Notes: a model not told the origin generated them from the sequence alone. DNA of 64,000 bases from an uncultured Myxococcales bacterium (GCA_964647025.1 CAZYFU010000001.1:66964-130963); one strand, 5' to 3'. Numbered from the stretch's first letter, positions 14,910 through 61,992 are shown. Program-made: numbers and translations.

Positions 14910-14918
14910 CGAACTCGA

Positions 14919-24956: not shown

Positions 24957-24957
24957 C

Positions 24958-33680: not shown

Positions 33681-33695
33681 GCTGCCTCGTCTTGG

Positions 33696-46224: not shown

Positions 46225-47973
46225 CTAGAAGCCGCGCGGCATCCGCGGCGAGTACGTCGCGTGCAGGAGGTGGTGCGCCTTCTCTCCGTTGGGCTCACCA
46301 AGGAACTCCTCGTAGACTGTGCGAATCGCGGGGTTCTTGTGCGCCTGACGAATGGGCAGTCCGCGATCCTCCGCGTACATCGCCTCGATGCGGCGCCGCC
46401 GGGTCTCGTCGTCGGTCGGCAACGGCTGGCCTCCGCCGCCAATGCAACCTCCGGGACACGCCATGACCTCGAGGAAGTGGATCTCCTCCTTGCCGGCCTT
46501 GATGTCGTCGAGCACCTTGCGCGCGTTGGCCAGGCCGTTCACCGCGCACAATTTGATCTCGCGGTCGCCGATCAGCACCGAGCCGCGCTTGATGCCGGCC
46601 GTCCCCCGCAGCGCGGGATACTCCAGCCTCGCCTCCGTCTTCGGATCGAGGACCGCGGCCACCGTGCGCAACGACGCCTCCATCATGCCGCCGGTCACAC
46701 CGAACATCAGACCTGCGCCGGTGGCGTCGCCCAGGATCGGATCGAAGTTCGACTCGGGCAGCGAGGGGACGTCGACCTCGTGCATGCGCAAGAGGTCGCC
46801 GAACTCGCGCGTGGTCAGCACCGCGTCCATCTCGGGCGTACCGTCGTCCAGCTTGTGCTCGGGGCGTTGGATTTCGAACTTCTTCGCCGAGCACGGCATG
46901 ATCGACACATTGAAGATCTTCTTCGGGTCGATGCCGTTGCGCTGGGCAAAGAAGGTCTTGGTCAAGGCGCCCACGATCTGCTGCGGCGACTTGGTCGAAG
47001 ACATGTTCGGGATGAACTCGGGGTAGAAGTGCTCCATGAACTTCACCCAGCCGGGCGAGCAGCTGGTGATGATCGGATAGGGCCCCCCCTTGTTGATGCG
47101 GGCGATGAGCTCGTGGCCCTCTTCCATGACCGCCATGTCCGCACCGAAGTCCGTGTCAAACACGTAGTCGAAGCCGATGCGGCGGAGCGCGGTCGGCAAC
47201 TTGCGGGTGAGCGGAACGCCCGGCGGAAGATTGTACAGCTCGCCGACGGTCGCGCGCACCGAGGGAGCGATCTGCACGATGACGATCTTCTCGGGATCTT
47301 CCAGCGCATCCGACACCTGCTCGAGGTAGCTCTTGTCGCGAATCGCGGCGACAGGGCACTTGAGCAGGCATTGCCCGCACAGCACGCACACGGTGTCCGC
47401 CAAGTCGCGGTCGAACGGCGGCAACACGGTGGTCGAGAAACCGCGGTTGACGAAGTCGAGGGCATAGACCCCCTGCACTTCCTTGCAGACCTTCACGCAC
47501 TTGCCGCACAAGATACAGAAGTCGGGGTGGCGCGTGATGGCCACCGACGACGTGTCGTTCGTGCCGTGGCGCTTCTCGCCCTCGTAGCGGATCTTGTCGA
47601 TCGAGTACTCGCGGCAGGCGTCCTGCAGGTTGCAGCGCTGGTTGCGGATGCAGGTCTGGCAGGCACGCGGATGGTTGGCGAGGATGAGCTCGATGATCGT
47701 ACGCCGAGCATCGCGCAGCTCCCGCGTGTTGGTACGCACCATCATGCCCTCCACGGCCGGGTACGAGCAGGCCGGCTCCAGCCGGGTGGAGCCGGTGGGG
47801 TTCGCCACCTCGACCACGCACAGACGGCACGCGCCCGAGACGGTCAGGTGCTTGTCGTAGCAGAGCGTCGGGATACGGATGCCGAGGGACTGCGCGGCTT
47901 CGAGCAAGGTCGAGCCAGCGGGTACGCGGACCGGCAGGCCGTTGATGGTCAGATTGACTTGATTGTCAGCCAT
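46225..47973 (-). CDS. hydA: [FeFe]-hydrogenase catalytic subunit, M3-type HydA (module 1)
   Basis: N-terminal [2Fe-2S] ferredoxin fold, His-ligated cluster motif (HPRACQTCIRNQRC) and 2x CxxCxxCxxxCP. H-domain motifs are TSCSPGW, MPCSAKKFE and EVMACPGGCIGGGGQP, followed by a small-subunit-like tail. Confidence 0.9.
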   Translation of the reverse strand: MADNQVNLTINGLPVRVPAGSTLLEAAQSLGIRIPTLCYDKHLTVSGACRLCVVEVANPTGSTRLEPACSYPAVEGMMVRTNTRELRDARRTIIELILANHPRACQTCIRNQRCNLQDACREYSIDKIRYEGEKRHGTNDTSSVAITRHPDFCILCGKCVKVCKEVQGVYALDFVNRGFSTTVLPPFDRDLADTVCVLCGQCLLKCPVAAIRDKSYLEQVSDALEDPEKIVIVQIAPSVRATVGELYNLPPGVPLTRKLPTALRRIGFDYVFDTDFGADMAVMEEGHELIARINKGGPYPIITSCSPGWVKFMEHFYPEFIPNMSSTKSPQQIVGALTKTFFAQRNGIDPKKIFNVSIMPCSAKKFEIQRPEHKLDDGTPEMDAVLTTREFGDLLRMHEVDVPSLPESNFDPILGDATGAGLMFGVTGGMMEASLRTVAAVLDPKTEARLEYPALRGTAGIKRGSVLIGDREIKLCAVNGLANARKVLDDIKAGKEEIHFLEVMACPGGCIGGGGQPLPTDDETRRRRIEAMYAEDRGLPIRQAHKNPAIRTVYEEFLGEPNGEKAHHLLHATYSPRMPRGF

Positions 47974-47991: not shown

Positions 47992-50463
47992 CTAGGTGCG
48001 CGCCACGGCGCCGAAGGGACAAACCCGGTTGCACTCGCCGCACTTGATGCAGCGTTCGTTGTCGATGACGTAGATCTCGCCCTTCTCGCCGCTGATGCAC
48101 TGGACCGGGCACCCGCGCGCGCAAAGGCCGCAACCGCGACAGTTGGAAAGGATGTGGTAGGTGAGCAACGACTTGCACACGCCAGCCAAACAACGCGTAT
48201 CGCGAATGTGCGATACGTACTCGTGCTCGAAGTAGCGCAGCGTCGAGACCACGGGATTGGGCGCCGTCGCCCCCAGGCCGCAAGCCGAGGTGCGCGAGAT
48301 GACCATGGCCAAGTGGCGCAGCTCGGTGAGGTCGTCCATCTTGCCCTTGCCGTCGGTGATCCGCTCCAGGATCTCGAGCATGCGCTTGGTGCCTTCCCGG
48401 CAGGGAATGCACTTGCCGCAGGATTCGTGCTGGGTGAATCCGAGGAAGAACTTGGCGAAGGCGACCATGCAGGTGCCCGAGTCGGTGACCACGAGGCCGC
48501 CTGAGCCCATCATGGCCCCGAGCTTCTTCAGGCTCTCGTAGTCGACGGCCGCGTCCATGCGGTCAGCCGGGATACACGCGCCGGACGGGCCACCGGTCTG
48601 CGCGCCCTTGATCGACGAGCCTTCGGGCGCACCGCCGCCGATCTCGTTGAGGAGATCTCGCATGGGGATGCCCATGGGAACCTCGACGAGACCGGTGTTC
48701 CGGATCTTGCCCGAAAGCGAGAAGATCTTCGTGCCCGCGCTCTTGTCGGTACCCACGCCGCGGAACCACTCCACGCCCTTGCTGAGGATGAGCGGCACGT
48801 TGGCGAAGGTCTCCACGTTATTCACGCAGGTGGGATGTCCGGCGAAGCCGTGCTGGGCCGGGTACGGCGGCTTGTTGCGAGCCATACCGCGCTTGCCCTC
48901 GATGCTGGAGATCATGGCGGTCTCTTCGCCGCACACGAACGCACCGGCGCCCTGGACGATCTCCACGTGCAGGCTCTTGCCCGAGCCGAGGATGTTCGGT
49001 CCGACGAGACCGTACATGCGCGCCTGCGCCAGCGCGATCTCGAGACGCCGAATCGCCAGCGGGTACTCGGCCCGGCAGTACACGAACGCGTGCTCCGCGC
49101 CGATGGCGTAGGCCGCGATCAACATGCCCTCCAGCACGCGGTGGGGGTCGCCTTCGAGGATGCTGCGATCCATGAACGCCCCGGGGTCGCCCTCGTCGGC
49201 GTTGCAAATGATGTAACGGGTGGTATCGGTCTGCGCGCGGGCGATCTGCCACTTCTTCCCGGTTGGGAAGCCGCCACCGCCTCGACCGCGAAGACCCGCG
49301 GCCGTGACCTCGGCGACAATCTGGTCGGGCGTCATCTCCTTGAGCGCCCTGTAGAGCGCCTTGTAGCCGTCCCGGGCGAGGTACTCGTCGATGTTCTCCG
49401 GGTCGATCTTGCCGGTGTTGGAGAGCACGCGCCGCTCTTGCTTGCTGTAGAAGGGAATCGACGCCTCGGTCACGTGACCGGGGGCGTAGAGCAAGCGCTC
49501 GACGATTTGGCCGCCCAAGATGTGCTTCTCGACGATCTCGGGTACGTCGGTCGCTTTCACGCGGCAGTAGAAGGCCTCGAGCGGCAAGAGCTGCACGATG
49601 GGGCCAACCTCGCAAAGGCCCTGGCACCCGGTCTCGATGAAGTCGACCTTGCCCGACAGGCCCCGCTTCTTGAGCTCGCTCAAGAATGCCTTGTAGACCG
49701 ACGGCTCATCGCTGGCGTCGCACGTCAGGCCCTTGCACAGGAATGCCGTGGCGAGGAACTGCGGTGACTTGTGCTCGGCGAGGTTGTGCAGTTCCTCGCG
49801 GAACTTCACACACTGCTCGTCGTCGTGGCAAGACATGCCCTCCATGCGACAGAGCAGGAAGTTGGGGCACGGCGTGCCCGGCCGGGTCTGGCACTTGTCG
49901 CAACAACGCTCGAGGAAGGTGCGGCCGCGCACCTTCTCGGTCCCGGCAGGCTTGCGCGCGACCACCGGTTTCGGTGTGGTCAGGAGCTTGCGCGCCATCT
50001 TGCCGACCATCTTGGGTGTCACGCGGCCATGCACCTCGCCGTCGATCACGACGGCGGGAGCCACGCCGCAGGCACCGACGCAGTTCACCTTTTCGAGCGT
50101 GACCTTGCCGTCAGGCGTGGTGTCGCCGGCATTGATGCCGAGGACGGCCACGAGCTCGCCCAACAGATCCTCCGAGCCCTTCACGTTGCACGCGGTCCCA
50201 TTGCAGACCTGGATGACGTGCTCGCCCTGCGCCTTCAGGCGGAACTGCGAATAGAAGGTCGCGACACCGTAGACGCGTGCCTCGGCAAGGCGCATGGCAT
50301 CTGCGACGTAGTCGAGAGCGTCGGTGGGGAGGTAGCCGTAAAGCTCCTGCGTCTTCTGCAGGACGGCAATGAGGTTGCGCGGCTTGAGGTCGACCCAATT
50401 GGCGAGCAAGTCGCGAAGCGGCGCCAGGTCAGTCACAGGAGGTGCAGCGGTGGTCTGTGTCAT
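47992..50463 (-). CDS. hydB: fused NuoE-like (HydC) + NuoF-like (HydB) flavoprotein subunit (module 1)
   Basis: Residues 1-160 are a NuoE-type [2Fe-2S] domain (CNGTAC...CVGAC). These are followed by a 7-Cys linker motif and a thioredoxin-like [2Fe-2S] domain. The NuoF core comes next (GRGGGGFPTGKKW, ESCGKCIPCREGT), then a C-terminal 2x[4Fe-4S]. Confidence 0.9.
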   Translation of the reverse strand: MTQTTAAPPVTDLAPLRDLLANWVDLKPRNLIAVLQKTQELYGYLPTDALDYVADAMRLAEARVYGVATFYSQFRLKAQGEHVIQVCNGTACNVKGSEDLLGELVAVLGINAGDTTPDGKVTLEKVNCVGACGVAPAVVIDGEVHGRVTPKMVGKMARKLLTTPKPVVARKPAGTEKVRGRTFLERCCDKCQTRPGTPCPNFLLCRMEGMSCHDDEQCVKFREELHNLAEHKSPQFLATAFLCKGLTCDASDEPSVYKAFLSELKKRGLSGKVDFIETGCQGLCEVGPIVQLLPLEAFYCRVKATDVPEIVEKHILGGQIVERLLYAPGHVTEASIPFYSKQERRVLSNTGKIDPENIDEYLARDGYKALYRALKEMTPDQIVAEVTAAGLRGRGGGGFPTGKKWQIARAQTDTTRYIICNADEGDPGAFMDRSILEGDPHRVLEGMLIAAYAIGAEHAFVYCRAEYPLAIRRLEIALAQARMYGLVGPNILGSGKSLHVEIVQGAGAFVCGEETAMISSIEGKRGMARNKPPYPAQHGFAGHPTCVNNVETFANVPLILSKGVEWFRGVGTDKSAGTKIFSLSGKIRNTGLVEVPMGIPMRDLLNEIGGGAPEGSSIKGAQTGGPSGACIPADRMDAAVDYESLKKLGAMMGSGGLVVTDSGTCMVAFAKFFLGFTQHESCGKCIPCREGTKRMLEILERITDGKGKMDDLTELRHLAMVISRTSACGLGATAPNPVVSTLRYFEHEYVSHIRDTRCLAGVCKSLLTYHILSNCRGCGLCARGCPVQCISGEKGEIYVIDNERCIKCGECNRVCPFGAVART

Positions 50464-50721: not shown

Positions 50722-51024
50722 ATGGTGAAAGTGGCGCTGCTGGTACGACTGGAAGCGAAGCCGGGGCGAGAGAAGGACGTCGAGCAGTTCCTACAGAAGG
50801 GACTGCCCCTCGTGGAGGCCGAACCGTCGACGGCTGCCTGGTTCGGCATCCGCATGGGAACCAACACATTCGGGATCTTCGACGCCTTCCCAGATGACGA
50901 AGCCCGCAATGCACATCTCTCCGGTCGGGTAGCAGAGGCATTGATGGCAAAAGCCGGCGACCTGCTCGTGCAGCCGCCTGCGATCGAGAAGCTCGACGTG
51001 ATCGCCGCCAAGTTGCCAAGCTGA
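50722..51024 (+). CDS. ABM (antibiotic biosynthesis monooxygenase-like) domain protein
   Basis: 100-aa ferredoxin-like alpha+beta protein with G-rich SD. Divergent from module 1 and convergent with the hybrid kinase. Confidence 0.65.
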   Translation: MVKVALLVRLEAKPGREKDVEQFLQKGLPLVEAEPSTAAWFGIRMGTNTFGIFDAFPDDEARNAHLSGRVAEALMAKAGDLLVQPPAIEKLDVIAAKLPS

Positions 51025-51026
51025 TC

Positions 51027-52487
51027 CTATGCCTTTGCAAGCGTGATCCGGAAGACCGAGCCCACGCCGATGGTGCTCTCGGCCGCTATCGTACCGCCCG
51101 CGCGCTCGACCAGGCGCTTCACGATGGCAAGACCGAGTCCGTTGCCGTCGATGTCGCGGGTCTCTGACCGCTTCTCCCGAAAGAACTCCTCGAACAGGTG
51201 TGGCAAGTTCTCGGGCTTGATGCCGATGCCGGAGTCTGCGACCTCGACCAGGATCTTGCCGCCGGCCTGTTTCGCGGACACCTGCAAGCTGCCGCCATCT
51301 CGGCCGTACTTGATGGCGTTGCCGACCAGGTTGCCGAGGACGGTCTTGAAGTCCTCGTCGCCGATGCTCGCCCGTGGCAGGTTGGCTTCGACGAGCACGG
51401 TCGCGTCCAACTGGCGGGCGGCGATCCTGGGTCGATACAAGTCGATGGTCATCGCCACGGCGGTCGCGACGTCGGTCGGCGGCTCGCTGGCGTTTGCCGT
51501 TCGCTCGAGGTCGATGCGCGAAAGCGACAGCAACTCGCCGATCAGCTCCACCAGACGATCGATGCGGTGGTCGGCGCGTTCGAGGTACGGCAAGTACGGT
51601 TCGAGCTTGTCGCCCAAGCTCTTCTCGGTGGCCACCTCGAGCAAGCTGCGGATGGCGCCCAACGGCGACCGGAACTCGTGCACCATGGTCCGGATGAAGC
51701 GCGGCTTCTCCATGGCCATCTTGCGCAGCAAGGTCACGTCCGCGAGGGTGAGAATCCGGCCCAGGGCTGAGCCGTCGTTGCCGTGAAACGTGACCACGCT
51801 GGCAAAGAAGATGCTATCGCCGATGGTGAGCTCGGCGACCCGCTGCTCGGGCTGATCCTTCTCGGACAACAGGCTGGCCAGCCCCGCCAAGCTGTCGTCG
51901 GTCAGCACGGTGTCGATGGGCATGCGCAAAAGCTCGGCGGAGGTCCGCCCCAAGAGCTTCGCCATCACATCATTGGCCAGCGCCACCTCGCGCTCGCGAT
52001 TGATCACCAAGACCGCGTCGTGTAGCGATGCCACGAGGGACGCGGTTTGGCTCTTCTCCGTGGCCAGCGCAAGCAGGTTGGCCTCGTTCTCCTTGCGCAG
52101 CTTCTCGGCTTCTTCTCTGAGCTGCTTGTGTCGGGCAAGCGTCTCGATCACGCCGAGCAAATCGTCGGGAGAGAACGGCTTCGGCAAGAAGAAGTCCACG
52201 CCTTGCCTGGTCGCCGCGATCGCCGTGTCGATGTTGGCGTACGCCGTGATCATGCAGGTGGAAGTGGCGAGCTTGCGGCTGCGCATCGACGACAACAGCG
52301 TCAGCCCGTCGATGTCGGGCAACTGGTAGTCGATCAGCGCGACGTCGAAGTCGCATTTCTCGAGCAGATCGAGGGCCTGGTGTCCGTTCTCGGCGACCTC
52401 GACGGCATACCCTTCCAGCTCGAGGATCTGGCGGATCCCCGAGCGGACACCGTACTCATCGTCGATGACCAGGACCCTCGCCGGCAT
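51027..52487 (-). CDS. REC-PAS-histidine kinase (hybrid, receiver at N-terminus)
   Basis: REC (VLVIDDE...ALIDYQLPDIDG), a PAS-like middle region, H-box (VHEFRSPLGAI), N-box (GNAIKY), and G-boxes (DSGIGI, GNGLGL). Confidence 0.85.
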   Translation of the reverse strand: MPARVLVIDDEYGVRSGIRQILELEGYAVEVAENGHQALDLLEKCDFDVALIDYQLPDIDGLTLLSSMRSRKLATSTCMITAYANIDTAIAATRQGVDFFLPKPFSPDDLLGVIETLARHKQLREEAEKLRKENEANLLALATEKSQTASLVASLHDAVLVINREREVALANDVMAKLLGRTSAELLRMPIDTVLTDDSLAGLASLLSEKDQPEQRVAELTIGDSIFFASVVTFHGNDGSALGRILTLADVTLLRKMAMEKPRFIRTMVHEFRSPLGAIRSLLEVATEKSLGDKLEPYLPYLERADHRIDRLVELIGELLSLSRIDLERTANASEPPTDVATAVAMTIDLYRPRIAARQLDATVLVEANLPRASIGDEDFKTVLGNLVGNAIKYGRDGGSLQVSAKQAGGKILVEVADSGIGIKPENLPHLFEEFFREKRSETRDIDGNGLGLAIVKRLVERAGGTIAAESTIGVGSVFRITLAKA

Positions 52488-52490
52488 GGG

Positions 52491-52910
52491 CTAGCCCGCG
52501 GCCGCGACCTTGCCCAGCTCGAGCTTCTCCTCGACGACCTTGAGGAGCTGTCGGCCGGTCACCGGCTTGTCGAGGAACGCATCCAGCTTGATCCAGTCCT
52601 TGAGCGCCGCGATCTCCGCGGAGAACTTGTGGCCGGTGGCGGAGGCAACGCCCGAGAGCATGAGGATCGGCACCTTTGCCATAGCTGGATCCTGGCGAAT
52701 CTTGCGGCTCAACATGAACCCGGAGTCGTAGTGCTCCATCATGAGATCGAGGACGATTACGTCGGGCTTCTCTTGCGAGACGCGCTCGAGTGCGCCATCC
52801 ACACGGTCCAGGGTCACCACCTCGAAGCCGCGCGAGCTGAAGAATGCGGTTTGCGCGGAAAGAAAGTCGCGATCGTCATCGACAAACAGAATCTTGGGGC
52901 TTTTCGCCAT
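52491..52910 (-). CDS. single-domain response regulator (REC only)
   Basis: ILFVDDD...VIVLDLMM...LDKP. AAGGAG SD 8 nt upstream. Overlaps the tail of the upstream kinase by 35 nt. Confidence 0.85.
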   Translation of the reverse strand: MAKSPKILFVDDDRDFLSAQTAFFSSRGFEVVTLDRVDGALERVSQEKPDVIVLDLMMEHYDSGFMLSRKIRQDPAMAKVPILMLSGVASATGHKFSAEIAALKDWIKLDAFLDKPVTGRQLLKVVEEKLELGKVAAAG

Positions 52911-54900
52911 GAAGCGTACTCCTTCTCAACGATTGGGTTTTCGGTAACTCGATGGTGAACGTGGTCCCGGTGCCAGAATCGGAATCGAACCAGATGCGAC
53001 CGTTGTGCATCTTCACGATGCCGTAGGCGATGGGAAGGCCCAGCCCAGTACCACGTCCAAGGCTCTTGGTGGTGAAGAATGGCTGAAAGACTTTGTCGCG
53101 CGCTTCGGGGGCGATGCCGCGGCCCTCGTCGCTGACACAGATGTGGACCCGGCCGGGCACGCCATCGTCGACGCAGAACAGACGGACTCTGCCCGCCCTG
53201 CCCTCCATCGCCTCGATGCCATTCTTGACCAGGTTGATCAGGACTTGGCCCATTTGGTCCTTGTCGAGATCGACCGCGAGATCCGGCGGCGCCTCGCAGG
53301 TGATGCGCAGCCCCGGTCCGGTGTCGCGCAAGGCGAACAGCGACTCTTCCACGACGCGCTGGAAGAGCTCGGCAAGGTTCGTGCGCTCGAGCTGAACCCG
53401 GTTTTGTCTGGCGAAGTCGAGCAGGTTGCCGATGATCTTCTTGCAGCGGTTGGCCTCGTCGACGAGCAGCTTGAGGTCGTGGTCGAGGTCGGGGCGTTCC
53501 TTGAGCTTGCGCGCGAGCAGGTTGGTGTAGAGGAGGATGGTTCCAAGAGGGTTGTTCAGCTCGTGCGCGACGCCGGCCGCCATCTGTCCCATCGAGGCCA
53601 GCTTCTCGGTGTTGATGAGGTGGCGGTGGATATCTCTGAGGTTCGGCCACGGAACGTTCAGCTCATGGCAGACCCGCTCGGCCTGCTCGATCATGAAGGG
53701 CAAGCACATGGCCTCTTCCGCCAGGCCTCGATGCACCGCGACCGCCTTGGCACGACAGGTCTCGTACCCGCAGGCACCACAGTTGAGCTCGTCTTCGGCG
53801 GTGAACTTGTTGGTGCGGGCAAGGATCACGCGGATCTCCTGCTCGGTGGGCTGTTTCAGGCGCTGGTCGTCGACCGTGAACTTGCGGTGCAGATCGACCG
53901 GTGGGATCGCGCTGGGATCCTCGCTAGGTTCGGACATGCGCGACTTCACGTACTCGGCAACGAGCCGCTTGCGCTGTGGCCGCCGCTCCACCCCCCGCAT
54001 GGCGGGGCCATTGTAGCAGCCATGGCACATGAGTGGCTCGATGAACAACGGTTCGGGATCGTCCGGCCGAAGATCGTCCAAGGCATCGAGGATCTCGGCC
54101 GCGCCAGACAGCACCATCACCTCGGTGTTGAGCGAGCTGCGCTCGAGCCCAGCGCCTTTGAGCAGACCGCCGACCAGTGGGTACAGTCGGCCGTTGCCCG
54201 CGCGCGGAGGATCGAATTCGCTCGGCGTGGCCGAGCTGATCTTGATACCGCGCTCGATGAACATGCGTCGCATTTCATCGAAGGTCAGCACCGCATCCAC
54301 GACCCGTGGAACCTGGGGGTCGCGCATCTCCTGCTTCTTCGAGACGCAGGGTCCGATGAAGACGCACGCGTGATCGGGGCCGTGCAGTGCCTTCACCGCC
54401 ATCGCGGTTGCGATCATCGGGGAAACGATGGGCACCAGGCACCCGACCAGATCGGGCAAGTACTTGCGGACGTACTCGACCACCGCCGGACACGCGGTCG
54501 CGAGCCGCGTCCCCGTCGGGTGCTCCTTGATGAAGGCGCGATAGGCCTGGTTGGTGAGATCGGCGCCGAAAGCGACCTCGACGACCTTCGCGAAGCCGAG
54601 GGCACGCAGAGCGCCAACCAGTCGAGCCGGGTCATGTCCAGAGTCGTCCGCCGGGAAAGCCGGGGCAACCATCGCCACCACCGGCTTTCCCTTGGAGAGC
54701 AGCTCGAGGACTTGCTCGGTGCTGCTCTCGTAGGCCTTGGCACCCTGTGAACAGACCACCGTGCAGTTGCCGCACGCGATGCAACGCTCTTTGACGACGG
54801 AGGCCTGGCCCTCGACGATCTTGATCGCCTTGGCCGGGCACTCGCGTACGCACGAGTAGCAGCGGCGGCAGTTCTGCAGGATGGTCTCGATCACACCCAT
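52876..54900 (-). CDS. [FeFe]-hydrogenase-like H-domain fused to histidine kinase (HydS-like putative H2/redox sensor kinase)
   Basis: N-terminal 2x[4Fe-4S] ferredoxin motifs. Degenerate H-domain motifs (LATACPAV, GPCVSKKQE, EPLMCHGCYNG). Cx2Cx4Cx16C motif at C374-C399. Then HisKA (AHELNNPL) and HATPase (NLVKNGIEA, DEGRGI, GTGLGL). Confidence 0.85.
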   Translation of the reverse strand: MGVIETILQNCRRCYSCVRECPAKAIKIVEGQASVVKERCIACGNCTVVCSQGAKAYESSTEQVLELLSKGKPVVAMVAPAFPADDSGHDPARLVGALRALGFAKVVEVAFGADLTNQAYRAFIKEHPTGTRLATACPAVVEYVRKYLPDLVGCLVPIVSPMIATAMAVKALHGPDHACVFIGPCVSKKQEMRDPQVPRVVDAVLTFDEMRRMFIERGIKISSATPSEFDPPRAGNGRLYPLVGGLLKGAGLERSSLNTEVMVLSGAAEILDALDDLRPDDPEPLFIEPLMCHGCYNGPAMRGVERRPQRKRLVAEYVKSRMSEPSEDPSAIPPVDLHRKFTVDDQRLKQPTEQEIRVILARTNKFTAEDELNCGACGYETCRAKAVAVHRGLAEEAMCLPFMIEQAERVCHELNVPWPNLRDIHRHLINTEKLASMGQMAAGVAHELNNPLGTILLYTNLLARKLKERPDLDHDLKLLVDEANRCKKIIGNLLDFARQNRVQLERTNLAELFQRVVEESLFALRDTGPGLRITCEAPPDLAVDLDKDQMGQVLINLVKNGIEAMEGRAGRVRLFCVDDGVPGRVHICVSDEGRGIAPEARDKVFQPFFTTKSLGRGTGLGLPIAYGIVKMHNGRIWFDSDSGTGTTFTIELPKTQSLRRSTLHGEKPQDSVCR

Positions 54901-54915
54901 GACCCGGACTCTCGT

Positions 54916-56637
54916 CTACTCTTCGGCGACTGCCCCCTCGCGCCTGCGGTCCACGTACTTGCGGTGCAGCAGGTGGTGGCTGATCTCCCCAAGCGGCTTC
55001 CCGAGCATGCTGCTGTACAGCTCGGTCACCTCTTCGTTCTCGTGCGAAACCTTCAAGGTCGCACGACGGTCGGCATCGTAGATGCGCTCGAGGCGCACGC
55101 GGATGCTCTCCGGATCCGTATCGTAGGGTTGACCGCCGCCGCCGATGCAGCCGCCGGGGCAGGTCATGACCTCGATGAAGTGCAGGTTCGAGTTGCCCTT
55201 CTTGAGCGGGTCGAGCATCGGCTGCAGCCGGCCGATGCCGTTGACGATCCCGAAGTTCAGCGTGGTGCCGGCCACGTCGATCGAGAAGCTCTTCAGGCCT
55301 TCGAGGCCACGCGCCTCCTCGATCTTGAAGCCGCCCTTGAGCTCGGTGCCCGTGAGCATCTTGTGCGCGGTCCGGATGGCCGCCTCCATGACGCCGCCGG
55401 TGCCGCCGAACAACCGCCCGGCGCCGCTGGCCGACGAGAACGGCGGATCCAGCGTGCCCTGCTCGGTCATCTCGTTGATGTCGATGCCAAAGCGTCCGAA
55501 CAGCTGCTCGATCTCGCGCGTGGTGAGCACGAAGTCGACGTCGCCCAGGGTGCTGGCCTCGACCTTCTTCGCCGTGCACGGCATGAACGACACGCACACC
55601 AGCTTCTTCCCGCCGAGGTCGCGGAACTTCGGGTACGTGTCTTTGATGAGCGCCGCCGCCATCTGCTGAGGGGACTTGCAGGTGGACAGGTGCGGAATGA
55701 GGTCCGGGCGGTGCTTCTCCACGAACTCGATCCAGCCAGGCGAGCAGCTGGTGAACATGGGCAGGGGACCACCGGTCTGCACGCGTTTGATGAGCTCGGA
55801 CACCTCCTCCATGATGGTGAGGTCGGCGGCGAAGGCCGTGTCGAACACGGCGCCGAAGCCGATCCTCTTGAGGGCCGCAGCCAGGCGGAGCAGCATGGTC
55901 TTCACCGAGCTGGCCTGGGCCTTCTCCATCAGCGTCGCGGGCACGGCCGGTGCGACCTGCGCCACCACGATGGTGTTCGGATCGCCGAGCGCCTTCACCA
56001 CACCCTCGACATGGCTCTTCTCCATCAGGGCCGCGGTCGGGCAGACGCGCGTGCACTGGCCGCAGGAGATGCAGGTCGACACGTTGATGCCGTCGTGGAA
56101 GCCCGGGCCGACGTGGGTCTTGATGCCACGCTCGATGAAATCGATGGCGCCGATACCCTGCACCTGGTGACAGACGGTCACGCAGCGTCCACACAGGACG
56201 CACTTGTTGGCGTCGCGCACCATGGCCGGCGACGACAGGTCGATGGGGTGGTTCTTCTTGAGACCGCGGTAACGACGCTCACGCACGCCCAGCTCGCTGG
56301 CGATCTGGGCGAGATCGCAGTTCTGGTTGCGCTCGCAGACCAAGCAGTCGTTGGGGTGGTTCGCGATGAGCAGCTCGGTGATGTTGCGCCGAACCGATTG
56401 CACGCGGGGCGAGCGGGTCTTGATCTTCTGCCCGTCCTTGGCCTCCAACGTGCAGCTCGTCTGCAAGCGCGGCATGCCTTCGACCTCGACCAGACACATG
56501 CGGCAGGCCGCATCCGACTTGCACGCCCAATCCAAGGCACACAGGTGCGGAATCGAGATGCCTGCCCGGCCGGCAGCCGAGAGCACCGTCTCGCCGGGGG
56601 TAAATTCAACTTCTTTGCCGTCGACAACGATACTCAT
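54916..56637 (-). CDS. hydA: [FeFe]-hydrogenase catalytic subunit, M3-type HydA (module 2)
   Basis: Internal ATG of track ORF 54916..56958, overlapping the hydB stop (ATGA). Same domain order as module 1, with motifs TSCSPGW, MPCTAKKVE and EVMTCPGGCIGGGGQP. Confidence 0.9.
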   Translation of the reverse strand: MSIVVDGKEVEFTPGETVLSAAGRAGISIPHLCALDWACKSDAACRMCLVEVEGMPRLQTSCTLEAKDGQKIKTRSPRVQSVRRNITELLIANHPNDCLVCERNQNCDLAQIASELGVRERRYRGLKKNHPIDLSSPAMVRDANKCVLCGRCVTVCHQVQGIGAIDFIERGIKTHVGPGFHDGINVSTCISCGQCTRVCPTAALMEKSHVEGVVKALGDPNTIVVAQVAPAVPATLMEKAQASSVKTMLLRLAAALKRIGFGAVFDTAFAADLTIMEEVSELIKRVQTGGPLPMFTSCSPGWIEFVEKHRPDLIPHLSTCKSPQQMAAALIKDTYPKFRDLGGKKLVCVSFMPCTAKKVEASTLGDVDFVLTTREIEQLFGRFGIDINEMTEQGTLDPPFSSASGAGRLFGGTGGVMEAAIRTAHKMLTGTELKGGFKIEEARGLEGLKSFSIDVAGTTLNFGIVNGIGRLQPMLDPLKKGNSNLHFIEVMTCPGGCIGGGGQPYDTDPESIRVRLERIYDADRRATLKVSHENEEVTELYSSMLGKPLGEISHHLLHRKYVDRRREGAVAEE

Positions 56638-58655
56638 ACGGACGCCCTTTCTTCTTCTCCCGGTTGAACCATGTGGATGGAGTGCTTGGGGCACGCGGTC
56701 ACGCAAGTGCCGCAGCCGATGCAACGGTCGACGATGATGTAGTGCGCTTGCTTGCGCTCGCCGACGATGGCGTTGCTTGGACACGATTTCTTGCAGATGA
56801 GGCAGCCGATGCAGGTCGCGTTGTCGACCTGGTACACCGCCAGCCCTTGGCACTGCCCGGCCGGGCAGCGTTGATCGATGACGTGCGATTCGTACTCGTG
56901 GCGGAAGTAGCGCAGGGTCGACAGCACGGGGTTGGCTGCCGTCTGACCGAGGCCGCACAGCGAGGCCTCCTTGACCGTCGAGGCGAGCTCTTGCAGGTGC
57001 AAGACGCCGCGGATGCGCTCGAGGCGCTTCTCCTCGTCACCAACGGGACGCTCGGTGATCGAGGTGAGGATCTCCAGCATTCGGGTGGTGCCTTCGCGAC
57101 ATGGGGTGCACTTGCCGCAGGATTCGTTGCGGATGAACTCCATGAAGAAGCGAGCGACGTCGACCATGCAGGTACGCTCGTCCATGACGACCATACCGCC
57201 CGAGCCCATCATCGCACCGAGCTCGATGAGCGTGCCGTAGTCGGTGGGCGTGTCGAAGTAGTCGCTCGGGACGCAGCCGCCCGAGGGACCGCCCATCTGC
57301 ACGGCCTTGATCTTGTGGCCGGGCAGCGCGCCGCCGCCGATGTCCTCGACGATAGTGCGCAGCTTGATGCCGACCGGGACTTCCACGAGGCCTGTGTTGC
57401 AGATGGTGCCGGAGAGGGCGAACACCTTGGTACCGGCTGCCTTGCCGAGGCCCAGATCCTGGAAGTACTGGGCGCCGCGGTCGATGATGACCGGAACGTT
57501 GGCCAGCGTCTCGACGTTGTTGAGCACGGTGGGCTTGCCGTGAAGACCGGCGATGGCGGGATACGGGGGACGCGGACGGGGCATGCCGCGGCCACCTTCG
57601 ATGCTGGCAAGAATCGCGGTCTCTTCACCGCAAACGAAGGCGCCTGCGCCCTGCTTGATGGTGATGTCGAACGAGAACAGGCTGCCGAGGATGTTGTTGC
57701 CGAGCAGACCGACGCGACGGAGCTGCGCGATGGCTTGCGAGAGGCGCTCGATGGCGAGCGGATACTCGGCGCGGCAGTAGATGTAGCCCTTGCTCGCGCC
57801 GATCGCGTACGCGGCGATGAGCATGCCTTCGATGACGAAGAAAGGATCGCTCTCGAGGACCGCGCGATCCATGAACGCGCCGGGGTCGCCTTCATCGGCG
57901 TTGCAGATGAGGTACTTCTGCGCGCGCGGCGTCTGGCGGGCGATGTTCCACTTCTGTCCCGTGGGGAAGCCTGCACCGCCGCGGCCACGCAGGCCGGATG
58001 CGAGGACTTCGTTGCAGACCTCTTCCGGGGTCATGTTGCACAGGGCGCGCGCCGCGGACTTGAAGGCGCCGGCGGCCAAAGCGGAATCTAGGTTCGACGG
58101 GTCGATGATACCGGCGTTGCGGAGCACGACCTTCACCTGGCGCTTGAAGAAGTCGGTGCTGTTGATCTCGGGGATGTCCGACCAATTCGGGCCAGCCTCG
58201 CCATGACGAGCGAAAAGGAAACTGTTGCGCAGGTTCTTCTTGATGAAGACCTCGTCGAGCAGTTGGTCGATGTTGCCTGGGTTGATGTCGGCGTAGGCGA
58301 GGCGCGGGCTGTCAGGCAACTGCACGTCCACGAAGAGCTCGCGCTGGCAGTAACCCACGCAGCCGGTCTCGATGATCTCGGCGGCGATCTTGTTCTGCTC
58401 CAGGAACTGGACGATGCGGGCGATGACCTTGGTCGAGCCGTTGGCACGGCCGCAGGTACCGGCGCCCACGAAGATCAGCGTGCCCTCCCCGCCGCGACGA
58501 ACCTTGGCGAGCAGGCTCTGCCGGGCCTTCCGGCAGGACTCGCTGTCGTGACAAACGGGTCCCTCGGAGATGCACTTGATGAGGTCACGACACGGGCTTC
58601 CCGGCCGGTGCGTGCACCGGTCGCAACATGGGGCGATGAGACTACTTGTCCGCAT
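56634..58655 (-). CDS. hydB: NuoF-like flavoprotein subunit HydB (module 2)
   Basis: N-terminal 7-Cys motif (CCDRCTHRPGSPCRDLIKCISEGPVCHDSESC) and a thioredoxin-like [2Fe-2S] domain. NuoF core (GRGGAGFPTGQKW, ESCGKCTPCREGT) and C-terminal 2x[4Fe-4S]. Confidence 0.9.
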   Translation of the reverse strand: MRTSSLIAPCCDRCTHRPGSPCRDLIKCISEGPVCHDSESCRKARQSLLAKVRRGGEGTLIFVGAGTCGRANGSTKVIARIVQFLEQNKIAAEIIETGCVGYCQRELFVDVQLPDSPRLAYADINPGNIDQLLDEVFIKKNLRNSFLFARHGEAGPNWSDIPEINSTDFFKRQVKVVLRNAGIIDPSNLDSALAAGAFKSAARALCNMTPEEVCNEVLASGLRGRGGAGFPTGQKWNIARQTPRAQKYLICNADEGDPGAFMDRAVLESDPFFVIEGMLIAAYAIGASKGYIYCRAEYPLAIERLSQAIAQLRRVGLLGNNILGSLFSFDITIKQGAGAFVCGEETAILASIEGGRGMPRPRPPYPAIAGLHGKPTVLNNVETLANVPVIIDRGAQYFQDLGLGKAAGTKVFALSGTICNTGLVEVPVGIKLRTIVEDIGGGALPGHKIKAVQMGGPSGGCVPSDYFDTPTDYGTLIELGAMMGSGGMVVMDERTCMVDVARFFMEFIRNESCGKCTPCREGTTRMLEILTSITERPVGDEEKRLERIRGVLHLQELASTVKEASLCGLGQTAANPVLSTLRYFRHEYESHVIDQRCPAGQCQGLAVYQVDNATCIGCLICKKSCPSNAIVGERKQAHYIIVDRCIGCGTCVTACPKHSIHMVQPGEEERASV

Positions 58656-59115
58656 GGGCCTCTCCTTCAGCTACGGTGTCGAGGAGACGGTCCAGCTTCT
58701 CCACGTCGAGATGGCCGTAGAACTCGCCATCCAATTTGATGACCGGCGCGATCGAGCAGGCCCCGAGGCAAGCCACCGTGATGACGGTGAACTTGTTGTC
58801 CGGCGTATTGCCGTTGGGCTTCAGGTTCAACTTGCGCTGCAGGTGCTGCGCGAGCTTCAAGCTCTGCTTCACGTGGCAGGCAGTGCCCCGGCACACTTCG
58901 ATGACGTGCGTGCCCTTGGGCGCGAAACGAAACTGGTTGTAGAAGGTCGCCACGCCGTAGACGCGGCTCTCGGGAACGCCGATCGCCTCGGCCACTTTGG
59001 CCATGGCGTCTTGCGAGACATAGCCTTCTTTCGCCTGAATCTCCTGCAAGATGGGGATGAGGTGCTCTTTGCAGAGCTCCTCATGTCCCGCAATGATCTG
59101 ATCCACGTGACACAT
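58642..59115 (-). CDS. hydC: NuoE-like [2Fe-2S] subunit HydC (module 2)
   Basis: NuoE signature (GVATFYNQF, CRGTACHV, CLGACSIAP). Overlaps the hydB start by 14 nt. Confidence 0.9.
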   Translation of the reverse strand: MCHVDQIIAGHEELCKEHLIPILQEIQAKEGYVSQDAMAKVAEAIGVPESRVYGVATFYNQFRFAPKGTHVIEVCRGTACHVKQSLKLAQHLQRKLNLKPNGNTPDNKFTVITVACLGACSIAPVIKLDGEFYGHLDVEKLDRLLDTVAEGEAHADK

Positions 59116-59181: not shown

Positions 59182-59601
59182 CTACGCGGTGGCGGCCTTC
59201 GTCGCCTCGGCTTCCGCGAGAAGCTGGCGAATGGTCGCGAGAAGCTCAGGCATCGCGACCGGCTTCTTCATCAGCTTCGCGGCCGGCCAGTCGCGGCCAT
59301 TGATGAAGTCGAAGGACTCCCGCTTCGCAGCCATGTGATCCATGAAGCCCGTCATGAGGACGATGGGGATCTGGCGCGTGGCAGGGTCGGCTTCGAGCTT
59401 GTAGGCGACGGTGAAGCCCTCGGCGTCCGTGTCCATCATGACGTCGAGAACAATCAGGTCGGGCTTCTGGGCGGAGATGGCCTTGAGCGCGTCGGTACCG
59501 TTGTGCTCCGTGGCCACCTCGAAGCCGTTGGCTTCGAGCACGGCTTTGGTTGACGCAACGAGATCCTTGTCATCGTCTACGAGCAAAACGCGCTTCCTCA
59601 T
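59182..59601 (-). CDS. single-domain response regulator (REC only), first gene of module-2 operon
   Basis: VLLVDDD...LIVLDVMM...MKKP. It is a paralog of the REC at 52491-52910. Confidence 0.85.
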   Translation of the reverse strand: MRKRVLLVDDDKDLVASTKAVLEANGFEVATEHNGTDALKAISAQKPDLIVLDVMMDTDAEGFTVAYKLEADPATRQIPIVLMTGFMDHMAAKRESFDFINGRDWPAAKLMKKPVAMPELLATIRQLLAEAEATKAATA

Positions 59602-59710: not shown

Positions 59711-59726
59711 AGTGAAAACTTTCACA
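59711..59726 (-). promoter_or_regulatory. Rex-box-like palindrome upstream of the REC-hydCBA operon
   Basis: AGTGAAAACTTTCACA matches TGTGAA-N4-TTCACA at 15 of 16 defined or flanking positions. It lies ~110 nt upstream of the 59601 ATG and directly downstream of rex. Confidence 0.55.
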
Positions 59727-59779: not shown

Positions 59780-60460
59780 CTACTTCTTGCTGAGGAACGA
59801 GAGCTTCTCTAGCTTGGCCGCGATATCGATGCTCTCGACGTAGCCTCCTGGTGCTGGGGTGATGCGCTTGGGGACGAAGTTCAGAATGGAAAGGACGCCG
59901 CACTTGGCTAAGCGGTCCACCAACTGCTGCAGCCCGGGTGGACGGCACGCCAGCACCGCCACTCGGACGTTGAACTCGGGCAAAACCTTGTCCATCTGGT
60001 CAACGTGGTAGCAGCGACGGCCAGCGAAAACCTTGCCCGCCTTGTCGGAATCCAGGTCGAATATGACGCCGATGTGAAATCCGCGCTCTTCGAAGCCACG
60101 GTAGGCCAGCAGCGATCGGCCCAAGTCGCCAACGCCAAAAAGCGCGACCGTCTGCGGCATATCCGTGCCGAGAATGCGGCTGATGGTCCGGGTGAGCTGG
60201 TAGACGTTGTATCCCCGGCTGATGTTGCCAAAGGACCCGAAGCTGGACAGATCGCGCCGCAGTTGGGCCGGCGTTACACCAACCATCTCGGCCAGTTGCT
60301 GCGAGTAGACATACTCGACTCCGTCGTAGTGCAGCTCCTCCAGCACCTTGCGGTAGACGCTCAGACGCTCCACCGTGGATACCGAAACGTGGCGGTCGCC
60401 CTTCCTTGCCGCATCAGCAGCTTGGCCTTCGGTCTCCAGGGTCGCCGTCGCCTCATCCAC
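59780..60460 (-). CDS. rex: redox-sensing transcriptional repressor Rex
   Basis: wHTH (TVERLSVYRKVL, SQQLAEMVGVTPAQLRRDLS) and a Rossmann NADH site (LFGVGDLGRSL). I prefer the GTG at 60460 because a promoter-like element lies just upstream; the track start at 60514 is also GTG. Confidence 0.85.
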   Translation of the reverse strand: MDEATATLETEGQAADAARKGDRHVSVSTVERLSVYRKVLEELHYDGVEYVYSQQLAEMVGVTPAQLRRDLSSFGSFGNISRGYNVYQLTRTISRILGTDMPQTVALFGVGDLGRSLLAYRGFEERGFHIGVIFDLDSDKAGKVFAGRRCYHVDQMDKVLPEFNVRVAVLACRPPGLQQLVDRLAKCGVLSILNFVPKRITPAPGGYVESIDIAAKLEKLSFLSKK

Positions 60461-60464
60461 GATG

Positions 60465-60481
60465 TTGTGATTATCTTCACA
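60465..60481 (-). promoter_or_regulatory. Rex-box-like palindrome overlapping the rex -10 region
   Basis: The minus strand reads TGTGAAGATAATCACAA, which is TGTGAA-N4-ATCACA with one mismatch to TTCACA. Confidence 0.5.
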
Positions 60482-60498
60482 GCACCTCGGCCAGTCAA
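60470..60498 (-). promoter_or_regulatory. candidate sigma70 promoter of rex (near-leaderless)
   Basis: On the minus strand: TTGACT (60498-60493), a 17-nt spacer, then GATAAT (60475-60470). The GTG at 60460 follows 9 nt later. Confidence 0.45.
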
Positions 60499-60580
60499 GC
60501 CCTATTTTGTGCACACAGGTCGTCTTAATGCAGCAAGGGGCCGCGCAAAATCCCCGAAAGCACTGCGCCTCCCATCCAGT

Positions 60581-61897
60581 CTAAGAGCGCGCCCCGTAAG
60601 CTGGCTTGCGAAGAATCGACAACGCCAACAGACCACCGGCGCATAGCAGTATGAGGTTGCGGACGGCGATCATGACGATGGGCGCCGTTTGCATTGCGAC
60701 CAGGTCCCAGTAGCGCGGCGGGAACACCATCTGCGTAAGAAGGATGGCACAAGCGAGCAGGCACCCGGCCAGCCGCGCACGCGCCGTCCCCACTGCTATC
60801 ACGAGCGCCAGCAGGGGCAGGCTCCAGATGAGGAACTGGGGGGACAGAACCTTGCTCGTGCACACGAAGATCAGAACCAGAGCCAAGGTGGCGGCGGGGA
60901 CGTCGGCCAGTGATGCCCGAAAGTCCCGCCTGCGCCGCCAAAGCAACAGGTAGAAGGCCGCAGTAAAAGCCAGCATGATCCACAGCGACAGCGAAGCGAG
61001 CGTGCCCGCCCCGGCGCCGATGACCGATTGCGATCCGTGGGAATTGCCGACGGCGGTCTGCCACCCAGCGATGGCATGCCCAAGCAGGTAGGGCGACGAA
61101 TACAGGCTCTCGATCTGCAGGGGACGCCCCGTGTGGTACTTGAAGACGTAGAGCAACGACCGAGCGGACCGGACGAGATATGGAAGGAACGGCAGCGTCG
61201 CGGCAAGCACGAAAGCCAGGCCTGCTCCGACGATCTGCTTCATCCGGGGGGCCAACAAGAAGACCAACGGCAACAGCATGGCCGGCGTCAGCTTCAAGGC
61301 GAAGCCGATTCCAAGCACCGCCGCCGCGCGCATCGGCCACCGACGGGACACGCAGTACACGAAAAGAGCGATATCGAGAGCGACCGCGACGTCGAATCGG
61401 TTGGCCACGATGGGGCCGGCGAAGAGCGTGGCAAAGGCAAATGCGAAAGCCGCGACGATGGGCGCGGCAAAGCCTGAGGACAGGCGCACGGCCGCCGCCG
61501 TCGAGACCACCGCCGCAGCAACACAAAGAACGATCATCTCGCCAGCGAACGCGTCACGATAGTCGACCCACGGGCCAAGCCACTGGGCGACCGACATCAG
61601 GGGAATCGCCAGTGGTGGATACTCGACGCGCACGTCGATGTAGGGACGAAGCCCGCGCGCGAACTGCCGGGCGTAGTCCTCGTAGAGGCCAATATCGCTG
61701 ATGTCGTAGAACCCGTACCAAGTATGGCGGGTTCGAAAGTGGTGCACGATGATCCACCAGACGAGCGCCTGCAGCAGCAGCGCAACCGCCACGGATACCA
61801 GCATCCGGATATTACGGCGCCGGATAGCCAAGTCTATGGGTCTTCGTCTCGAGCGCAAACCACCGGACATCCTAGCGGACTGCGTCCCCACGACCAT
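60581..61897 (-). CDS. polytopic membrane protein, DUF2029/GT87-like glycosyltransferase
   Basis: More than 10 TM segments, and a VEYPPLA motif typical of the family. The start is uncertain (ATG 61897, 61870 or 61804); the 542-aa track version is rejected. Confidence 0.65.
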   Translation of the reverse strand: MVVGTQSARMSGGLRSRRRPIDLAIRRRNIRMLVSVAVALLLQALVWWIIVHHFRTRHTWYGFYDISDIGLYEDYARQFARGLRPYIDVRVEYPPLAIPLMSVAQWLGPWVDYRDAFAGEMIVLCVAAAVVSTAAAVRLSSGFAAPIVAAFAFAFATLFAGPIVANRFDVAVALDIALFVYCVSRRWPMRAAAVLGIGFALKLTPAMLLPLVFLLAPRMKQIVGAGLAFVLAATLPFLPYLVRSARSLLYVFKYHTGRPLQIESLYSSPYLLGHAIAGWQTAVGNSHGSQSVIGAGAGTLASLSLWIMLAFTAAFYLLLWRRRRDFRASLADVPAATLALVLIFVCTSKVLSPQFLIWSLPLLALVIAVGTARARLAGCLLACAILLTQMVFPPRYWDLVAMQTAPIVMIAVRNLILLCAGGLLALSILRKPAYGARS

Positions 61898-61992
61898 CGA
61901 CTTTCTTCGTCGGCAAACCGCCCGAGACCGGCGAATCCCTCTTGTCTCCCGCGGACGGTTAAGCCAAGGTCCCGGCTGCGAGGTAGAAGTCC

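Follow-up and report, generated by a model that had tools for sequence, protein, structure and literature searches.

A histidine kinase with a group C [FeFe]-hydrogenase-like input module, and the shortened Cys motif of its lineage

Introduction

A 64,000-nucleotide stretch of DNA from an uncultured Myxococcales bacterium (hereafter the window) encodes on its minus strand, at 52876..54900, a 674-residue sensor histidine kinase in which a hydrogenase-like input half is joined to HisKA and HATPase_c domains. Its product can be identified securely, more so than its signal, as a soluble sensor kinase of the cytoplasm whose input resembles a group C [FeFe]-hydrogenase and whose gene belongs to a conserved hydrogenase-linked phosphorelay cassette. 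An earlier note on this DNA had put forward such a fusion of a group C sensory module to a kinase as a candidate H2 or redox sensor, and the fold, the extra cluster motif and the pocket substitutions agree with that view. Of the signals the protein might perceive, we lean modestly towards H2, sensed through an H-cluster-like cofactor.

Whether group C [FeFe]-hydrogenases are H2 sensors is still debated in 2026. Only TmHydS and TamHydS have been studied biochemically, neither with a built-in output, and TmHydS is the only group C protein with a demonstrated H-cluster; the literature to 2026 continues to term the sensory role putative, in keeping with the statement in the earlier note that kinase-linked forms are known as genomic predictions only. 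HydDB (2016) divides the group into C1 ('histidine kinase-linked (putative)'), C2 ('chemotactic') and C3 ('phosphatase-linked'), all with 'undetermined role'. With a direct kinase fusion the question could be decided by an easily read activity, namely autophosphorylation in the presence and absence of H2. The family concerned is abundant in fermenting and syntrophic bacteria of sediments, soils and guts, beside electron-bifurcating hydrogenases, and probably contributes to controlling how much H2 is made and used in anoxic ecosystems.

Results

The open reading frame of the kinase was confirmed at its full 674 codons, and its N-terminus, MGVIETILQNCRRC, agrees with the family consensus drawn from an alignment of 50 sequences. 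All coordinates given below for the kinase and its operon are on the minus strand. The protein opens with a pair of [4Fe-4S] ferredoxin motifs (C11/14/17/21 and C40/43/46/50; 54739..54876), matched twice by Pfam Fer4 within residues 9–54; both had been noticed earlier, the first as it stands, whereas the second ends in CxxxC-S and not in the CxxxC-P that had been reported. In a set of 119 close homologs (at least 54 per cent identity) C21, C40, C43, C46 and C50 are invariant and C11, C14 and C17 are Cys in 118, the lone exception being a gap. In a diverse panel of 124 members, drawn as representatives at 50 per cent identity, seven of the eight ferredoxin Cys are invariant, with C43 outside the invariant list.

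The ferredoxin motifs are followed by an H-domain (residues 72–299; 54004..54687) that matches Fe_hyd_lg_C (PF02906) over the whole profile (positions 1–245 of 245, E 6.8e-45), and the proposed colinearity of this region with the H-domain of the neighbouring HydA proteins is upheld. In an AlphaFold2 model built with 50 homologs as input, the per-residue confidence (pLDDT) of the H-domain is mostly >90. When the model was compared with the PDB by Foldseek, ∼390–440 columns superposed on the hydrogenases CbA5H, HydABC HydA, CpI and DdH, with top matches at E ∼1e-17, and the C-terminal half was matched to histidine-kinase cores such as ZraS; no sensory HydS structure was among the 50 PDB matches listed.

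After the H-domain and ahead of the kinase core lies a Cx2Cx4Cx16C motif (C374, C377, C382 and C399; 53698..53787), recognized as PF04060 'FeS' at residues 372–401 and invariant in both the 119 close homologs and the 124-member panel. The identification of this motif as a HydS-type signature is borne out by the translation and by the literature, in which it is said to unite groups C and D (PMC8163306; PMC13104023). The cluster it would bind lies ∼45 residues ahead of the phospho-acceptor H446, and the linker runs directly into HisKA: as the earlier note had it, no PAS domain intervenes, and none was matched by Pfam anywhere in the kinase. The HisKA/DHp domain (PF00512, residues 437–499; 53404..53592) carries H446 in the H-box HELNNPL, read as VAHELNNPL in the translation, and its best PDB match is ZraS both by sequence (E 5.9e-32) and by fold. 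HATPase_c (PF02518, residues 546–655; 52936..53265) has its N box at N556, its G1 box at D591/G593/G595 and its G2 box at G617/G619/G621. Since H446 and the residues of the N, G1 and G2 boxes are invariant in the 119 homologs, as are E447 and N450, the kinase looks functional. No NCBIfam model reaches its cut-off for the 674-residue protein. Two further cysteines, C411 just past the Fe-S motif and C486 within the DHp helix (ANRCKKIIGNLL), are invariant in the 119 close homologs, though not across the wider panel; a redox-sensitive pair or an additional ligand might be their role.

All four Cys ligands of an H-cluster can be placed in the kinase by alignment. The P1 motif is LATACPAV (residues 133–140; 54481..54504), with A136 at the position of the proton-relay Cys299 of CpI and C137 at that of ligand C300; the motif had been read correctly, but both neighbouring HydA proteins have TSCSPGW and not the TSCCPxW with which it was contrasted. 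P2 is GPCVSKKQE, as reported (residues 183–191; 54328..54354), with G183, C185, K188 and E191 at M353, C355, K358 and E361. In P3, EPLMCHGCYNG (residues 288–298; 54007..54039), E288 is the Glu of ExMxC and L290, C292 and C295 correspond to M497, C499 and C503, with exactly one residue fewer between the two cysteines than in the window's two HydA proteins, which read CPGGC (CxxxC). The CxxC of P3 had been correctly noticed against its neighbours; it is not peculiar to this kinase, being invariant in the family. The canonical patterns TSCCPxW, MPCxxKxxE and ExMxCxxGCxxG thus go unmatched, the kinase having TACPAV, GPCxxKxxE (these two as in TmHydS) and ExLMCxGCxxG with the four ligand Cys present. 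A further pocket position lies in RLYP (54178..54189), where Y240 falls at CpI F417 and TmHydS Y223 by the colinearity of GNGRLYPLVGG with the neighbouring HydA's GAGLMFGVTGG; family members have either F or Y there.

Conservation of the pocket is strong. C137, C185, C292 and C295 are invariant in the 119 close homologs; in the 124-member panel C185, C292 and C295 remain so and C137 is at least 90 per cent conserved. G294, beside C292 and C295, is invariant in family alignments. A79-P80, S160-P161 and G183-P184-C185-x-x-K188-x-x-E191 show no variation in the 50-sequence alignment and reach at least 90 per cent conservation in the panel, and for the segments that in catalytic enzymes contact the [2Fe] subcluster (A79-P80, S160-P161, G183-P184-C185 and K188) conservation equals that in the PAS-type class described below. 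The replacement of the proton-relay Cys299 by A136 and of M353 by the small G183 is as for group C, where Ala at the C299 position and Gly at the M353 position have been reported at ∼43 and ∼51 per cent. The local sequences of TmHydS, rebuilt from the mutagenesis primers in the TmHydS paper, are PFITT-A131-CPVV, IVFV-G177-PCIAKKS, RARF-Y223-PTTDG and FIEA-S267-A-C269-YGS-C273-L. Substitutions of the type C299A, M353G and F417Y (TmHydS) and M497L (TamHydS; PMC8163306) are compatible with [2Fe] insertion.

The shortened P3 motif is neither a sequencing error nor the oddity of a single gene, as it is invariant in the 119 close homologs and recurs throughout the genome comparison, for which 80 loci were kept of the 362 relative-encoding stretches from species-representative genomes (loci are cited below as L numbers and panel members as P numbers). 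All 80 loci are contracted, 69 with CxxC and 11 with CCxxC, and in the diverse panel the spacing is CxxC in 55, CCxxC in 4 and CxxxC in 65 of 124. Judged from these aligned sequences, CxxC spacing is a hallmark of the whole lineage that shares the sensor module. Neither the contraction nor its tie to output-domain fusions was found described in the open-access papers searched. Class and output go together in the panel: a Pfam scan split by P3 spacing gave, for the 58 scanned members of the CxxC class, HATPase_c in 37, HisKA in 35, a sigma-54 activator in 13, GGDEF in 3 and MCP in 3, whereas the 65 scanned members of the CxxxC class are mostly PAS-type proteins (median 575 residues) with one kinase and one sigma-54 activator, PAS being typical of this class alone. 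That one module is found on histidine kinase, sigma-54 activator, GGDEF and MCP outputs marks it out as an input domain for signalling. The CxxC-type module (two Fer4 motifs, H-domain and Cx2Cx4Cx16C; panel members P0121–P0270) behaves as a portable one. In a neighbour-joining tree rooted on the HydA proteins of the window, 63 of the 65 CxxxC sequences fall in one pure clade and the CxxC sequences form a paraphyletic grade; that paraphyly makes the root unreliable, and no claim on the ancestral spacing is made.

The CCxxC forms are mainly from Bacteroidales; with the additional Cys one residue ahead, a CxxxC pair becomes possible again beside CxxC. They make up a CCxGC subclade comprising the focal genes of L059, L060, L065, L068, L069, L071, L073 and L077–L080, and CCxGC is also found in panel members P0131, P0137, P0138 and P0157. 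This form either compensates for the ligand shift or represents an intermediate stage in it. A second sensor-like gene was seen in 20 related loci, in 18 of them coding for a product that has no kinase domain. It is a canonical CxxxC HydS at L011 (392–2323) and L018 (896–2644); most of the others lack PCxxKxxE altogether and keep Cx2Cx4Cx16C, and such degenerate second sensors, devoid of the P2 motif, occur in Bacteroidales, Spirochaetota and Planctomycetota. The second gene lies upstream on the same strand at L029, L031, L038, L040, L052, L061, L067, L070 and L076. The presence of two different hydrogenase-like sensors at one locus suggests distinct signals.

A rarity of this kind of protein, implied by the earlier note, did not hold: with the sensor half as query more than 7,300 proteins are found at E ≤ 1e-10, and the class is already present in HydDB group C and in the literature as BfuT. 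The kinase gene is an ordinary member of this large, already catalogued family. Its 120 best matches all have the identical architecture and ∼670 residues. Among representatives at 50 per cent identity, searched exhaustively, 4,898 clusters pass E ≤ 1e-3 and 958 of them E ≤ 1e-30, and at least 362 stretches of species-representative genomes encode a relative. The closest relatives (81–89 per cent identity) come from metagenome-assembled genomes of uncultured Myxococcales and deltaproteobacteria. The 80 loci include Myxococcota/'delta proteobacteria', Syntrophales, Thermoleophilia, Planctomycetota, Hydrogenedentota, Spirochaetota, Ignavibacteria, Bacteroidales, KSB1, Calditrichaceae and Omnitrophota, at least a dozen phyla overall. 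Proteins of this kind go under generic names in public records, such as 'signal transduction histidine kinase/iron only hydrogenase large subunit-like protein' and '4Fe-4S dicluster domain-containing protein'.

The kinase gene is embedded in a tightly packed run of minus-strand genes in the order rex, receiver (REC), hydC, hydB, hydA, sensor kinase, REC and REC-PAS-HisKA-HATPase_c. Translation of the junctions confirmed that the kinase starts exactly 15 nt after the hydA stop and lies upstream of two receiver proteins, as had been described: its 3' end overlaps by 35 nt the next gene, a single-domain REC of 139 residues (52491..52910, Pfam) preceded by an AAGGAG ribosome-binding site, and 3 nt separate the stop of this REC from the start of the hybrid REC-PAS-HisKA-HATPase_c kinase (51027..52487, Pfam). 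Upstream are hydA (54916..56637), the large subunit of a group A bifurcating-type [FeFe]-hydrogenase (Pfam; NCBIfam TIGR02512 above cut-off; E 1.7e-160 against Thermoanaerobacter kivui HydA1, 8a6t), whose start is overlapped by the hydB stop; hydB (56634..58655), a NuoF-like flavoprotein subunit with Pfam Complex1_51K, NADH_4Fe-4S and Fer4; and hydC (58642..59115), a NuoE-like [2Fe-2S] subunit (2Fe-2S_thioredx). A second single-domain receiver (59182..59601, Response_reg) is the first gene of the hyd operon, and rex, for the redox-sensing repressor, lies at 59780..60514 (NCBIfam Rex models above cut-offs).

The window's own proteins were used as probes against the 80 loci, with denominators giving the evaluable loci. 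Directly upstream of the kinase lies hydA in 58 of 66, and the full hydC-hydB-hydA set precedes it in 47 of 52; a REC gene follows directly in 72 of 76, and REC-PAS-kinase is found downstream in 68 of 70. On the flanks, rex lies upstream in 16 of 52, a REC gene upstream of hydC in 21 of 52, and a second hydrogenase operon downstream in 17 of 48. The hydCBA genes, sensor kinase, REC and REC-PAS-kinase are thus a unit kept across phyla.

Two Rex-box-like palindromes, at 59711–59726 and 60466–60481, are the only matches to TGTGAAN4TTCACA in the 64 kb (≤2 mismatches allowed, one in each). The former lies between rex and the REC-hydCBA operon; the latter is found where rex begins and overlaps a match to a sigma-70-like promoter (60498–60470). 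These sites in the rex/hyd control region indicate that the operon containing the kinase is probably repressed by Rex. A Rex operator pattern with a 6-nt spacer gave no match in the window.

Discussion

Several known systems resemble the kinase in part. TmHydS shares the order of two N-terminal [4Fe-4S] motifs, H-domain and C-terminal Cx2Cx4Cx16C, shares three pocket residues (A131/A136, G177/G183 and Y223/Y240, TmHydS first), and is likewise encoded near a catalytic hydrogenase. It differs in ending in a PAS domain where the kinase has HisKA-HATPase_c, in its C269-x3-C273 as against C292-x2-C295, in a Ser at M497 where the kinase has Leu, and in a more compact H-domain; when sought by its published residue numbers it was not found among the top 150 representatives. 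TamHydS has the accessory clusters including Cx2Cx4Cx16C, is devoid of the proton-relay Cys and has Leu at M497 (L290), and its gene adjoins those of a trimeric bifurcating hydrogenase, a gene for a histidine-kinase-like ATPase also being close by (PMC8163306). Unlike the kinase it has no fused signalling domain and carries Ser in place of Gly at M353, and it belongs to a different phylogenetic group.

The closest genomic parallel is BfuT (reference WP_006928132.1), a kinase-domain group C protein encoded directly after the bfuA/hydA of a trimeric A3-type hydrogenase. A 2024 study of Hydrogenedentota (PMC11406978) found HATPase_c or histidine-kinase domains on group C proteins. In sub-type V clusters common to Hydrogenedentota and Caldithrix abyssi it placed a 'bfuT' directly after bfuA, and in three cultured Bacteroidota it noted another bfuT, upstream of bfuC. 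The BfuT-type Hydrogenedentota and Calditrichaceae loci of our comparison (L021, L023 and L029) encode proteins 44–47 per cent identical to the kinase, with equal synteny and an equal CxxC. The extra upstream gene of Bacteroidota is seen also at L059, L069, L073, L077, L079 and L080, there as a second sensor-like gene on the opposite strand. The window itself comes from an uncultured Myxococcota/deltaproteobacterial lineage, unlike the BfuT clusters of Hydrogenedentota and Caldithrix abyssi. That description of BfuT is genomic only, and the contracted P3, the downstream pair of REC and REC-PAS-HK, and the other output fusions do not appear to figure in it (PMC11406978). The kinase-linked group C class (HydDB) and the bfuT-after-bfuA arrangement were therefore already known, and what is new here is the lineage-wide CxxC and its link to output. 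Placement of the kinase in group C is by features, and the 44–47 per cent identical Hydrogenedentota/Calditrichota homologs have been put in that group by others; the subgroup may be C1 or C3.

A functional analogue is found among [NiFe] hydrogenases of group 2b, where HoxBC, HoxJ and HoxA likewise run from a slow sensor-type hydrogenase through a histidine kinase to control of hydrogenase genes. HoxBC/HoxJ differs in its unrelated metal centre and fold and in having sensor and kinase as separate polypeptides, and it has been validated experimentally.

In the mechanism that we propose as most likely, the kinase gene is co-transcribed and translationally coupled with the bifurcating-type hydCBA genes and with the REC/REC-PAS-kinase pair. 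The H-domain would hold an H-cluster-like cofactor with its proton relay out of action, as it is in TmHydS and TamHydS, so that turnover is slow, and binding or oxidation of H2 there would alter the redox or conformational state of the input module. That change would in turn switch autophosphorylation of H446, upwards or downwards, and the phosphoryl group could pass from H446 to the adjacent single-domain REC, to the REC of the hybrid kinase, or to both. Gene order suggests that the hybrid kinase may relay it further, to a regulator encoded elsewhere, through which hydrogen metabolism would be adjusted. Rex, responding to NADH/NAD+, would control the operon in parallel with the kinase.

H2 sensing through an H-cluster-like cofactor is favoured here because the pocket copies that of validated sensors, because the ligands are invariant, and because a true hydrogenase is nearly always adjacent, from which it follows that maturases for the [2Fe] subcluster should occur in the same genomes. 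Several observations weigh against it. The contraction of P3 leaves C292-x2-C295 one residue shorter than in all catalytic enzymes and in TmHydS (C269-YGS-C273), so that the four ligands can be placed, but with a spacing that TmHydS does not have; C295 is moreover the Cys needed to bridge to the [2Fe] subcluster. This is the sole pocket feature without experimental precedent, and no characterised protein shares the spacing. In the 2024 study (PMC11406978) P1–P3 were hardly findable in the C1 or kinase-domain group C set, and H2 sensing by these proteins was doubted. The C-terminal cluster of TamHydS is not reduced by H2, a result said to 'challenge[] earlier hypotheses' (PMC13104023) and one that weakens a simple electron relay to that cluster. 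The kinase also has Ala81 at the position of CpI S232, which hydrogen-bonds a CN ligand in catalytic enzymes; the residue is Ser in 115 of the 119 close homologs. Finally, the cluster encodes no output regulator, and no DNA-binding response regulator was found among the 30 open reading frames of the window that were scanned.

The eukaryotic proteins Nar1/IOP1 (NARFL) are a further caution. These cytosolic Fe-S assembly factors are H-domain homologs that keep the four Cys and several pocket motifs and bind Fe-S cubanes only, with no [2Fe] subcluster. They have no ferredoxin pair, Cx2Cx4Cx16C or kinase, and their CxxxC spacing is kept. Retention of motifs alone therefore proves nothing, and Nar1/IOP1 are a precedent for a domain of this fold with cubanes only.

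On such a view the kinase would be an Fe-S redox sensor and not an H2 sensor: its [2Fe] site would be lost or altered, the H-like domain would hold only a [4Fe-4S] cubane, and the resulting chain of four cubanes would equilibrate with reduced ferredoxin or with HydABC, letting the kinase report electron pressure on the hydrogenase. We consider this, the main rival, possible and, on balance, doubtful. It would account for a contraction that is universal in the lineage (80/80 loci; 59/124 in the panel) and absent from TmHydS and the catalytic enzymes, and it would fit both the unresponsiveness of the TamHydS C-terminal cluster to H2 (PMC13104023) and the doubt raised over the H-cluster motifs of kinase-domain group C proteins in PMC11406978, as well as the general precedent of Nar1. 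The pocket is also somewhat looser in the CxxC than in the CxxxC class (K358 in 48/55 versus 64/65, S232 in 43/55 versus 64/65), and L011 and L018 encode a canonical CxxxC HydS together with a CxxC kinase, suggesting non-redundant signals. It fares less well with the substitution pattern, which copies that of H-cluster-binding sensors, and with the operon, which already has a dedicated redox sensor in Rex. The 11 loci of the CCxGC subclade restore a possible CxxxC pair, suggesting selection for the canonical ligand geometry. Nor does a cubane-only site give an obvious reason for near-invariant A79-P80, S160-P161-M162 and G183-P184-C185-x-x-K188; Nar1-type proteins likewise keep several of these segments.

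The protein might instead be a regulatory or electron-transfer subunit of the HydABC complex, an attached 'BfuT' that for example gates bifurcation, with the kinase secondary or acting on the complex itself. The gene directly adjoins hydA, is translationally coupled to the operon and holds this position widely, the scanned open reading frames of the window include no DNA-binding response regulator, and the 2024 paper names it a T subunit of sub-type V BfuABC (PMC11406978). This is nevertheless improbable and the least likely of the explanations: the kinase is complete, with invariant catalytic residues and two conserved downstream receivers typical of a phosphorelay; the same input module occurs on sigma-54 activators, GGDEF and MCP proteins, as befits a free-standing signalling module; and the solved HydABC complexes (8a6t, 7p5h and 7q4v) contain no such subunit.

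H2 sensing through an H-cluster-like cofactor is the reading we prefer for the kinase. The CxxC contraction is a concrete, testable structural difference that runs across a lineage, and the failure of others to detect H-cluster motifs in these proteins may be owed to it. As a speculation that we would not expect to prevail, the contraction may set apart a very large lineage of hydrogenase-derived input modules that has given up the standard H-cluster. In that case thousands of catalogued 'sensory [FeFe]-hydrogenases' from over a dozen phyla would act as Fe-S redox sensors of hydrogenase electron flux and not as H2 sensors, and loci with a CxxxC HydS and a CxxC kinase would detect two different signals.

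Other features of the window

No hydE, hydF or hydG maturase gene was found among the 30 open reading frames scanned, which is uninformative because a catalytic hydA adjoins the kinase in any case. A search for sigma-54 promoters (TGGCAC-N5-TTGCW) gave 21 matches against 27 expected by chance, none of them well placed, and a generic promoter and terminator scan of the window stayed at or below the shuffle expectation.

A second hydrogenase operon begins ∼560 nt beyond the signalling cassette, with a fused hydC/B gene and a hydA. The fused protein (823 residues; 47992–50463, minus strand) joins a NuoE-like (HydC) to a NuoF-like (HydB) part, and a fused hydC/B gene follows the cassette also in the close relatives L001, L003 and L008. 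The second hydA (46225–47973, minus strand) passes the cut-off of the NCBI model 'NADH-dependent [FeFe] hydrogenase, group A6'. Both HydA proteins of the window (54916–56637 and 46225–47973) read FTSCSPGW at P1, which in a direct alignment places a Ser at the position of the cubane ligand Cys300; a P1 of the TSCSPGW type is also present in the active HydA1 of Acetobacterium woodii (PDB 7q4v) and has been noted in Melainabacteria (PMC3787301). In the 560-nt gap before the second operon lies an open reading frame of 100 residues (50722–51024, plus strand) with no Pfam match at E ≤ 1e-5, whose product by eye resembles a small alpha+beta barrel (ABM-like) protein.

Divergent from rex and ∼1.5 kb away (60514 to 61993), with unassigned open reading frames between, is a 2-oxoacid:ferredoxin oxidoreductase alpha-type gene (61993–63603, plus strand; POR_N and a TPP-binding domain) that could be a source of reduced ferredoxin for the bifurcating hydrogenase. 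Further signalling genes of the window encode a double-FHA protein (13944–14918, minus strand), a PP2C phosphatase (24880–25779, plus strand), a PAS-GGDEF cyclase (27157–28512, plus strand) and a GAF-HD-GYP-like protein (32028–33695, minus strand), with no evident tie to the hydrogenase cassette.

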